From contig OZ024743.1 in NCBI GenBank assembly GCA_964016885.1, positions 341,000,001 through 341,064,000 on the forward strand: 64,000 bases of DNA. Direction: 5' to 3'. Every line of letters starts with the position of its first letter. Within the stretch, counting starts at the first letter, position 1. The translations under genes and the position numbers were made by a program. Shown in pieces: positions 18,561-37,369 of the stretch. Origin of the DNA: Eledone cirrhosa. Taxonomy: Eukaryota. The notes under the pieces are model-generated. The model was not told the DNA's origin. It ran no database searches and was given only the letters and a program-made list of their open reading frames with translations.

Positions 18561-18622
18561 TTATTTATTCGTTTATTTATTAATGTATTAATTATTATTA
18601 TTATTATTATTATTATTATTAT

Positions 18623-20756
18623 TTGCATTTATCTTGCTTTATGTTTATACGAGTTATCACCAAGTCACAACCAGTGACCTCAAGAGACAACAAGGTCCGC
18701 CATGTTCAAGAAAGAACATACATATTCACACATGCATCCTTAGTGTTTAGACTTGTGATGTACTTATATTGACAGTATTGATGTACTTATATTGTACTTG
18801 TGATGTACTTATACTAGTATATGGGCAGTTCCCATTAGTACTATCTTTTGTATTTCTCCTATACGCGGGTTTCCTGGGATTTGCGATAAGTAGTCGTTAG
18901 ACCCCTTAGGTATCATTCCCAGAGCGCCTACAACCACTGGTATTGTTTTAGTTCTCAATTTCCACATTTTTCCAATTTCTATCTCCAGGTCCTTATACTT
19001 GCTCAATTTTTCAAATGTTTTTATAGATACATTCTTGTCTATTGGAACAGACATATCAATTAGCAGGCATACCCTCCTTTGAAAGTCCTTCAATATTATA
19101 TCAGGTCTATTTGCATCTATTTTTCGGTCTGTTTGGATGCTAAAGTTCCACAAGATTGAGATGTGATCTTTTTCAAGTATGGGAGGTGGTTGATGCTCCC
19201 ACCAATTCTTTTGATGGGGCAGGTCAAAATGCTTACACATTATCCAATGTATGTATTGTGCAGCTCTGTCATGCCTGTTTAGGTATTCGGTTGGAGCTAT
19301 AGGACTGCACATTGAAATTATATGGTCAATGGTCTCTGGTTGTTTTTTGCATACACGGCATAATGGGCTGCACCCATTTTTTTATTATGTTGGCTTGGTA
19401 ATTTTTTGTTGGCAGACACTGATCTTGTGCGGATATAATCAGTCCTTCAGTCTCCGATTTCAGTCCAGAGGATGCCAACCACTGATGGATTAAAGTTTTG
19501 TCAACATCAGGATTGTTAGCTCGCTCTGGGTATTTTCCATACAGAGGCTTTTCTTGCCATTTCTTAGCCAGTTTCTGTAGCAGTTCTTTCTTTGCAGTTA
19601 CTTTTACCTGCTTTGCTTTTTCTGTGTTTTCCATTTCAGCAGTAAATGGGACTTCTGAAATTTGTAGTCCATTACTGTATCTTTGTGCATCTTTTGTAAT
19701 GGAATATGATCTTTTGGTGCTTTCGTGTTTCAAAACGAGTTTGATCATCCAATCATGTGATTCCCTTAGATATGTGGATAATCCAATTGTTGCAGTTTTC
19801 AACGCAATGTCTAACTGGATTAACCCACGTCCTCCTTCTTTCCTAGGGAGATATATTCTATCTATGTCTGCCTTAGGCTGATGCATTCTGTGCATGGTTA
19901 AGAATTTTCGGATTTTTGTATCGAGCCTACGGATCTCTGTGCTTGACCAGTTGATGACATTGTAACTGTAGGTTACTACTGGTATGGCAAGCGTGTTTAT
20001 GGCATCGATCCTATTCCTTGCATTCAATTCCGTTCTTAAGATTGCTCTGACTCTGCGGTAACATTCCTTCCTTATCCTTTCCCTCATTGTCGAGTGCTTG
20101 ATTCCGTCTCCTTCACAAACACCTAGATATTTGTAAGTTTGTTCTTGATCAAGCTCTCTTATCACGTTCCCCCGATCAAGATTAATGTCTGAACTCTTCA
20201 GCAGCTTTCCTCTGGTGAACGTTGCTTTGGCGCATTTATCCAGTCCAAACTATTTTAATGTCATCACTGAACTGCTTCACAGTGGATAATAGCCCTTGCA
20301 ATTGTTCATCATTTTTTGCAAATAGTTTCAGGTCATCCATGTAGAACAGGTGATTAATGGTTTTGTCATAGACTCTATATCCATGTTTTGTTTCATTGAG
20401 CATTTTACTTAATGGTATAAGTGCGATGCAGAATAAAAGCGGTGATAAAGAGTCACCCTGAAAAATTCCACAATTAATGTTAACTTCTCCAGCTTCCAGT
20501 GATTTTGTTTCACTATTCAAAAGGAGTGTCGTTCTCCATGTCCTCATACTGAATGACAAAAACCTCCTGACAACGGGGGATATTTTGAAAATCTCTAAAC
20601 ATTTTTCAATCCAACTGTGTGACAAACTATCAAATGCTTTTTTATAATCTATCCAAGCAATCGATAGATTTTTGTGTCTATTATGACAATCTTCCAGTAT
20701 CATTTTGTTAACCAGAAGCTGATCCTTACAGCCATATGAGCCTCGTTTACACCCTT
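18623..20756 (-). mobile_element. R4/Dong-clade non-LTR retrotransposon family B, 5'-truncated and frameshifted
   Basis: ORF pieces 20236-20703, 19326-20165 and 18809-19312 carry [17 protein letters not shown] and RPD. Nearly identical to 31379-33482. (TTA)n on both sides. Confidence 0.93.
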
Positions 20757-20878
20757 ATTATTATTATTATTATTATTATTATTATTATTATTGTTATTGT
20801 TATTCCTTGAATCTCAGTCATTGATGTTGGTTAACTGGAAAGTCCGTTGGATTGAATATCAAGCCACTACCTGCAGCC

Positions 20879-36149: not shown

Positions 36150-36179
36150 ATTATTATTATTATTATTATTATTATTATT

Positions 36180-37064
36180 AAGGCGCTTACGGCCCTCGAC
36201 CAGTGTGATGGGTGGAAACTCCACCTTGGCGTTCTGTAGAGAATTAGTGGAGGGGAAAAGCGACGACGTACTTGGGGAAACTCTAGGCGCCGACGAAAAT
36301 CAACTAGCCAATCTGTTCGGAAGAATTTTCGGGCCGGGGCCTATGGACAATTTCTAGAAATCCCTGGACTGGCAGTGCTACCGAGGAGCTATGCTAGTTC
36401 GGGATAAACTCTACAGGCATGGAAGTGTCGTCAGTCGGGCATGTCCGAGATGCGCGCAGGGCGACGAAACCGTCCTGCATGCACTCGTCCAGTGTCTGAG
36501 CATTGCTGACTTATGGGTTTATGTCGAACACCTGCAGTCGCGTGTAGAACGGATCCGGCTATCAGCTGAGTCAATCGTGAGGATTGCCCCGCCCTCCTCC
36601 TTTAGCCGGGAAGGGCAGGCAGTTTTTATCTGTCTGGTGGCCATGGCGAAAGAAATAGTATGGTGGACGCGTGTGAAAGTGCTGAAGACGAGCACTAACA
36701 TCTTCGGTGATGCCCTGATTAACTTTTTCAAATTTCATTTGGAAAGGAAAATCAGGGTAGAGAGGGAAGAATCGCCCGAGTGAATGGGCCTACTCTGAGT
36801 TTATGCCTGTAAATTGAAGGTAGAAAACTGGGAGAGGGTACTTGCCCTGGTGGTCAGGGTCAACGTGGCTTTTTTTAAAGGGCTTTCTCGACGATGGCCC
36901 TCGGAAGTATCCCCCTATTGGGGAATTTTTCATTGTTCTTTTTTTGTTACATCCTCTGTTTTTGTTTTTTTACACGCAGAAATGCCCACTTGTACCGTCC
37001 TGTATTGTCCTGTACTGTCGTTAATGTCTACTTTGTGTAAACCCTTGTGGTTAATAAAGAAAGC
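36180..37064 (+). mobile_element. 5'-truncated Tx1 (ORF2 C-terminus plus 3' UTR)
   Basis: Matches 30427-31351. CPRC..ETVLHALVQC, AATAAA at 37053 and an ATT tail. Confidence 0.92.
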
Positions 37065-37369
37065 ATTATTATCATTATTATTATTATTGCTGTGGTTGTT
37101 GTTGTTGTTGCTGCTGTTGTTGTTCTTTTCGCATTTCTTCAGCCATGAACACTTCTCGATTGAAAGGGATGAAAATACAGCTCCCTCCATTAAAATACAG
37201 CACTATGCATTCAACATCATTTGATTTACTGAAATGGTAGTCAAATACCCAAGCCACGATTCATTCTACTGTTTGAAAGAAAGAAAGAAAGAAAGAAAGC
37301 GATGATGGGAATATACAGTCATTGTATACCTTCCGTAGAAAAGATAGGATGGTTACGATTGGAATGACT

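Follow-up and report, generated by a model that had tools for sequence, protein, structure and literature searches.

A stretch of 64,000 nucleotides from the genome of Eledone cirrhosa (contig OZ024743.1, positions 341,000,001 to 341,064,000; hereafter the window) carries retrotransposons of two unrelated clades that follow each other in trains and are joined by (TTA)n microsatellites. The elements belong to two Dong-like families, DongA and DongB, which encode a restriction-like endonuclease (RLE), and to several Tx1-like families, which encode an apurinic/apyrimidinic endonuclease (APE); a short interspersed nuclear element (SINE) with a Tx1-like tail accompanies them. Both groups are found almost only in (TAA/TTA)n and sit there in opposite orientations, and it is probable that each insertion splits and lengthens the tract it enters so that the trains grow. 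The window is an example of a genome-wide pattern.

Train 1 (18591–37088) consists of seven retrotransposons of the non-LTR type (LTR, long terminal repeat) in series, five Dong-like and two Tx1-like, as mapped by BLAST against natural copies. Eight (TTA)n tracts of 11, 12, 18, 9, 34, 12, 10, and 5 units (111 units in total, 15–102 bp each) link them. The order of the elements, their strands and the tract positions agree with the original prediction, the tract coordinates to within 2 bases, and are as follows (ORF, open reading frame; RT, reverse transcriptase).

18591–18623 (+): (TTA)11, left end of train 1 and 3′ tract of DongB (repeat scan, BLAST map).
18624–20754 (−): DongB, 5′-truncated and frameshifted, 98% identical to the second DongB (BLAST).
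20755–20804 (+): (TTA)12 (20755–20790) and interrupted DongA tail units with AAC variants in the DongA sense.
20805–25664 (−): DongA, full length (BLAST, domain search).
25665–25720 (+): (TTA)18 (25665–25718), head-to-head between DongA 5′ and Tx1a 5′.
25721–31351 (+): Tx1a, full length, with ORF1 followed by an APE-RT-zf ORF2; frameshifted.
31352–31378 (+): (TTA)9, tail-to-tail between Tx1a 3′ and DongB 3′.
31379–35357 (−): second DongB, with a frame of 1216 codons that one internal stop divides into pieces of 465 and 750 amino acids.
35358–35463 (+): (TTA)34 (35358–35459).
35464–35973 (−): DongA 3′ fragment, 510 bp, 94% identity (BLAST).
35968–36008 (+): (TTA)12 (35968–36003).
36009–36155 (−): DongB 3′ stub, 147 bp, 97% identity (BLAST).
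36149–36178 (+): (TTA)10.
36178–37062 (+): Tx1 3′ fragment, 84% identical to Tx1a, of an older or sister family (BLAST).
37063–37088 (+): Tx1 tail with (TTA)5 perfect units (37074–37088), right end of train 1.

All seven elements retain the 3′ end while five are shortened at the 5′ end, and BLAST against natural copies found none of the missing 5′ halves behind the next element. The short copies therefore appear to be 5′ truncations and not elements split by another, and the earlier view that none is nested in the body of another holds. The second DongB lacks about 0.9 kb of its 5′ untranslated region (UTR), the truncation point being a short internal TAA motif.

The same target is used across the genome. 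Copies were collected by searching the genome with element-internal queries, so that the flanks were unselected; the best 40 candidates were scored per search and 30 loci were examined. A tract was counted from 4 units upwards, and the counts exclude the window's own copies and one locus (L101) that is the tandem twin of another (L100). In all, 147 of 154 anchored ends lie on a TAA/TTA tract; the chance that such a tract begins beside a random position is 0.18% (20,000 draws). The 5′ ends matter most for targeting, because a tract at the 3′ end could be a mere tail. They lie on a tract in 29/29 cases for Tx1a, 27/28 for DongA, and 27/29 for DongB, where four rows were assigned by hand (two stuttered junctions, two UTRs split by a SINE; the script count is 23). 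The corresponding 3′ counts are 26/29 for Tx1a, 29/29 for DongB and 9/10 for DongA, for which 3′ ends came only from the 10 longer loci and from neighbours, and the tenth copy has no 3′ part. Together this amounts to 55 of 58 Tx1a ends and 92 of 96 Dong ends, and the Tx1a rate lies well above the criterion of more than 20% of flanks given in the available text of PMC4494074. Two further Tx1 families use tracts likewise (10+1 and 2 junctions). Since Tx1a also adjoins Dong copies that are 74–75% diverged (L033, L056), the use of tracts is reciprocal. The proposal that an RLE-encoding and an APE-encoding clade share one target is thus borne out by genomic copies, most of whose flanks are TTA/TAA.

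Polarity is equally strict. The 378 unique tracts gathered from every locus show (TAA)n beside Dong ends, read in the element's sense strand, in 249 of 250 cases, and (TTA)n beside Tx1 and SINE ends in 155 of 156 and 48 of 48 cases, respectively. The junctions of Tx1a are also in register: ATT closes 35 of 36 full-length 5′ junctions and opens 35 of the 37 3′ junctions listed (of 44). Target-primed reverse transcription is well established and, combined with this polarity, it implies that priming takes place on the T-rich strand for Dong and on the A-rich strand for Tx1. The two endonucleases would accordingly nick opposite strands of the repeat. The Tx1a register would fit a nick at AAT/AAT, and a TpA step is known for the L1 endonuclease.

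Several observations suggest that insertion adds repeat units. Of 48 DongA 3′ junctions, at least 39 start out with units interrupted by AAC, of a kind that a pure target would not provide, and the tail is therefore borne by the element. At the other end, 16 of 126 Dong 5′ junctions (11/37 full-length, 5/89 truncated; read by eye) repeat the first bases of the element, a count that is a floor because a stutter in pure TAA would be invisible. At L068, L085, and L113 extra TAA units lie between the stutter repeats and must therefore have been made at the junction. Extra synthesis at 5′ junctions, by snap-back and template jumps, is known for R2 from the available text of PMC11371274. Anchored Dong tracts have a median of 17 units on the 5′ side (n = 50) against 8 on the 3′ side (n = 38; p = 7e-6), and the two tracts of young Dong copies sum to a median of 24 units (interquartile range 16.5–30; 47 of the 51 copies that have both ends), against medians of 10.5 for lone Tx1 tails and 5 for random tracts. 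The 111 units of train 1 likewise exceed the 23 of the longest element-free tract in 1.0 Mb of random sequence. Tails carried by the element, stuttering at the 5′ end and summed tract lengths all support the idea that the trains are self-extending.

How common such trains are was estimated from a random sample of 20 blocks of 50 kb (1.0 Mb from 13 contigs, weighted to large ones, in a genome of 3.0 Gb). The sample contains 81 tracts of at least 4 units, with a median of 5. Among the 22 tracts of at least 8 units, 12 touch a Dong, a Tx1, or a SINE and 10 are element-free, the longest element-free tract having 23 units. Mixed trains are present in 3 of the 20 blocks, one of them a near replica of the train in the window, and all seven young Dong copies of the sample sit in these three. 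Scaled from three events, thousands of trains would be expected genome-wide as a rough figure. The window is consequently not a special locus, as such trains are common. Among the collected copies, 90 of the 138 anchored ends with a tract have a further element on its far side (four DongB rows hand-assigned), and in 37 of these it belongs to the other clade.

The trains probably arise in the following way. Tx1 would nick the A-rich strand at AAT/AAT and Dong the T-rich strand, which would fix the polarity, and the 3′ tract would be copied in part from the RNA tail. At the Dong 5′ end, repeated slipping and re-annealing during joining, carried out by the element RT or by host end-joining, would write new TAA units, and both new tracts would then serve as targets for either clade. 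The tails of Tx1 and of the Tx1-tailed SINE may have seeded sites, after which a burst of young Dong (copies 99–100% identical) would have filled tracts beside older Tx1 copies (94.5%). It is tempting to go further and to speculate that in this cephalopod genome the two clades, RLE and APE, sustain a self-feeding niche together with a SINE, in which Tx1 and the SINE seed TTA tails, Dong writes new TAA at its 5′ junction by reiterative, telomerase-like synthesis, most long TAA microsatellites are made by elements, and distant Dong families can exchange 5′ UTRs by way of the thousands of resulting trains. This larger scheme is put forward only tentatively.

A number of points weigh against self-extension on a shared target, or limit it. 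The net gain of repeat is deduced from distributions and not from comparison with an empty allele, and perfect tracts also lengthen by ordinary slippage after insertion. When tracts are compared in pairs, the excess of 5′ over 3′ is modest (28 vs. 17, p = 0.03). If binding called for a long tract upstream, this too could account for the 5′/3′ asymmetry, and some of the GAA stutters may have come down from a single master copy. Neighbours are found across the tract at 65% of ends compared to 41% (18/44 sides) of long tracts in the random blocks, but the latter figure rests on three trains and the comparison cannot separate self-renewal from hot spots. Exceptions to the target are L005 and L030 (3 units), L018 in (TTC)n and L062 in (AT)n, while L080 abuts a Tx1 body and L103 is inverted. 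Only 13 of 30 young 5′-truncated Tx1 copies lie on a tract of at least 4 units, and many older Tx1 relatives have no tract, a class that includes alignment edges which are not true ends. Pairing of the RNA tail could yield the same Tx1a register as a nick at AAT/AAT. Finally, no read or contig from three runs of one sample and one restriction site-associated DNA (RAD) run crosses the left tract of train 1.

The alternative that survives best, although it is unlikely, is that both clades target TAA/TTA but insertion adds nothing: a few long tracts are hit repeatedly and cut up, and slippage restores their length. Repeat hits are indeed expected when long element-free tracts are as scarce as 10 of at least 8 units in 1.0 Mb, the neighbour rates are compatible with either model, and slippage of perfect microsatellites is established knowledge. 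On the other hand, cutting up does not readily give the 111 units of train 1 where the longest element-free tract in the random 1.0 Mb has 23, and tracts between two Dongs (median 11 units) are not shorter than lone Tx1 tails (median 10.5). The AAC tail units move with DongA and the new TAA units lie between stutter repeats, and copies that are 99.6–99.9% identical leave little time for slippage. Even less probable is a model in which only Dong targets the repeat, whereas Tx1 enters AT-rich DNA with little specificity and produces (TTA)n tails of its own, which are then colonised by Dong. The frequent lack of a tract at truncated young Tx1 copies speaks for such a model, as does the SINE, which is mostly outside tracts (1–2 units in 77 of 90 tails). 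It is at odds with the 29 of 29 full-length Tx1a 5′ ends that lie on (TTA)≥4 in a fixed register, 11 of them with no element across the tract, and with the two further Tx1 families that behave likewise. That the train is an assembly concatenation at microsatellites is, on indirect grounds, very improbable, for although the public contigs of the same runs do not cross the tract at the left junction and a mis-join at a tract would likewise preserve polarity, the seven copies are 0–16% off their relatives and have private indels, the same junction types with junction-specific stutters recur at hundreds of loci on more than 10 chromosome-scale contigs, and the tracts are short (15–102 bp). In addition, contigs from three runs of a single sample confirm the left flank as far as 18540, at single-copy depth.

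The label Dong/R4 is based on domain architecture and TAA target and not on a tree with named Dong and R4 references; at least 120 homologues were listed for the protein, with no clade name among them. The DongA open frame (20879–24304, 1141 amino acids stop to stop) contains an RT, a CCHC motif at residue 952 and a PD..D nuclease motif at residue 1038, and intact copies of DongB encode 1216 amino acids with the same three features. In profile searches both matched RVT_1 (E 5.5e-23 for DongA, 5.7e-30 for DongB) and neither gave an Exo_endo_phos match indicative of an APE. The nuclease region of DongA aligns weakly to that of R2, and the best Foldseek matches of its structure model (predicted local distance difference test score, pLDDT, 85.6) are all R2 (E 2e-35). 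The two proteins are 36% identical and the ORFs scarcely align as DNA. Among the top-scoring copies Dong is young and Tx1a is older: the ORF is uninterrupted in 8 of 10 DongA and 8 of 10 DongB copies and the pairwise identities are 99.9 and 99.6% for the two families, compared to 94.5% for Tx1a, where the longest ORF2 piece in 20 copies is 734 amino acids. In a search for an N-terminal DNA-binding domain, Myb-like as in R2, residues 50–132 of the Dong protein were modelled as four helices, for which the best VIA Z scores were 5.8 (Sap1), 5.7 (TRF1, root-mean-square deviation 2.7, 63 aligned), and 4.8 (R2), all below 8; Foldseek gave no match for this region at E ≤ 0.001.

The 5′ UTR of DongA is about 1.36 kb and contains an internal 0.33-kb duplication. 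The segment 24481–25664, which has no ORF, precedes the DongA ORF, whole or 5′-truncated, in 29 of 29 other loci, and its first 265 bases lead into DongA in 9 of 9 further copies; it is DongA's own 5′ UTR. A separate or Tx1-derived element was rejected for this segment, since every copy runs on into DongA and a comparison with the 5′ regions of three Tx1 elements gave no match. Over their first 366 nt the 5′ UTRs of DongA and DongB are 73% identical (25300–25664 (−) of the window against the DongB 5′ end of L144; also 51536–51873). The similarity suggests that a 5′ UTR or promoter was swapped between the families, an exchange that their tandem stacking may have helped; alternatively, an RNA element may be under selection. 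In DongB (L068–L075, L082, L090) the 5′ UTR contains a fixed 45-bp remnant of a SINE 3′ end, and in two DongB copies an additional SINE is inserted there.

Tx1, too, is a label given by domain architecture and target and not by a tree with named references; homologues were listed without a name or as 'hypothetical'. Tx1a has two ORFs, the second with Exo_endo_phos, RVT_1, and zf-RVT in this order (profile search), and the Tx1 ORF1 of L140 has a CX2CX4HX4C knuckle. The best match of Tx1a among solved structures is human L1 ORF2p (E 2.9e-38), spanning endonuclease and RT, while R2 reached only E 8e-19. Among homologues of Tx1 that bear a name, the nearest comes from Argonauta hians (72%), which together with the genome size makes an octopod host likely; a metagenome scan confirmed no Tx1 relatives. 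The Tx1a copy of train 1 (25721–31351) lacks about 174 bp of other copies and is about 93% identical to them. The SINE-like repeat, which is abundant, is 187 bp long (58630–58816 (+); also 730–907, 37783–37963, 38525–38702, and 44800–44990) and terminates in ATT units. Over its final 30 nt it is similar to the 3′ ends of two Tx1 families, Tx1c and Tx1d, whose scores were reached by 0 of 2000 shuffles; for Tx1a and Tx1b, 159 and 85 of 2000 did so. Judged from this 3′ end the SINE is likely mobilised by Tx1. An Rfam search found no tRNA head, only AT-repeat noise. A further repeat family has at its end a short run of TTA and then (TA)n, with 14 matches in the random blocks and 8 in the loci (for example L139, L025, L006), and possibly also at 5135–5146 of the window; no ORF was found in the 900 bp examined. 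This family may supply further seed sites, and at L156 its TTA run is extended into a long tract.

The rest of the window holds a second train and some further features.

45741–64000 (polarity as in train 1): train 2, with a DongB partial duplicate, DongB, Tx1b with an rDNA-spacer-like insert, SINE, DongA, DongA.

The second train, predicted to run from 45740, is real and continues beyond the window to about 79,361, some 15 kb past its end, with Tx1 copies and SINEs; it is, however, less clean than the first, with a tractless duplication, an interrupted Tx1 and SINEs. The duplication is a 1.22-kb tandem repeat of the DongB 3′ part (45774–48228), with a joint at 47008 that has no TTA tract. The Tx1 is split by about 4.2 kb of GC-rich DNA with 204-, 88-, and 95-bp subrepeats (53263–57495). 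Homologues of 56830–57330 are located 5–13 kb downstream of at least 15 of 29 5.8S rRNA matches, on the opposite strand, and the insert is probably ribosomal DNA (rDNA) spacer that lies immediately after 28S and has been inserted in antisense. The second full-length DongA has an inverted tract at its 5′ junction, (TAA)8 being followed directly by (TTA)13 (63397–63458). This looks like snap-back synthesis; L103 has a larger 5′ inversion. Between the trains, a near-perfect hairpin (41162–41246) forms the centre of a 0.8-kb inverted repeat (40787–41579), perhaps a miniature inverted-repeat transposable element (MITE)-like element.

If the interpretation given here is right, it provides a concrete cause for the clustering of transposons in cephalopod genomes, as well as a case in which two unrelated nucleases read a single 3-bp repeat on opposite strands, and intact, near-identical Dong ORFs are at hand for assays. 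Hundreds of natural junctions also make it possible to test a standing question, namely whether retrotransposons with a specific target use up their safe-harbour sites or make new ones themselves. The component parts are all of known kinds. As the original prediction stated, Dong inserts into TAA repeats and some Tx1 families into microsatellites. Both are published, for Dong with a snail among the cases and for Tx1 with microsatellites other than TTA (available text of PMC3812793 and PMC4494074), as is convergence of APE and RLE elements on one site. Dong-R4 is reported to have been active recently in Octopus vulgaris (PMC13282606), and hot spots as well as activity of Dong-R4 and L1-Tx1 are described for octopus, with no target analysis in PMC13282606 or in the available part of PMC8967140. 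Neither a TTA-targeting Tx1 lineage nor mixed Dong/Tx1 trains were found in the literature searched, although Repbase and earlier target tables may list such a lineage.

The comparisons that follow rest on the available parts of the papers cited. Members of the R4 clade (Bombyx mori Dong, DongAg, DongBg) resemble the present elements in their single ORF with RT, C-terminal CCHC, and PD..D nuclease and in their TAA target, but here two families with only 36% protein identity share the target and stack in trains with Tx1. Bombyx Dong also carries a 5′ hepatitis delta virus (HDV)-like ribozyme (PMC3774820), whereas at the Dong 5′ ends studied here Rfam gave no match at E ≤ 1 but AT-repeat noise, a search that divergent ribozymes can escape. 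The microsatellite-specific Tx1 elements Kibi, Koshi, and crocodilian Tx1 are APE-RT elements in (TC)n, (TTC)n, (TTCC)n, and (TTTC)n (PMC4494074); the target found here, (TTA)n, is absent from that list and is shared with an RLE clade. In the same work tandem SINEU-3 insertions and Tx1-Mar show sequential insertion into a regenerated target and a SINE riding a Tx1 family, but there the target is a DNA transposon, and the SINE described here is weakly targeted. Keno (Tx1, APE) and Utopia (RLE) offer a direct precedent for a target shared by APE and RLE lineages, as both converged on U2 small nuclear RNA genes (PMC4640811). Their target is a multicopy gene, unlike the dispersed simple repeat considered here, which is apparently regenerated and is entered with opposite polarity.

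TRAS and SART of the silkworm belong to the R1 clade. They are two families that occupy one simple repeat, (TTAGG)n, in opposite orientations (PMC7265360), as Dong and Tx1 occupy (TAA/TTA)n, but both are APE elements at telomeres, whereas the arrays described here combine RLE and APE elements and are interstitial and genome-wide. Of the known systems, the trains work most like a TRAS/SART array that is interstitial and built from an RLE and an APE element.

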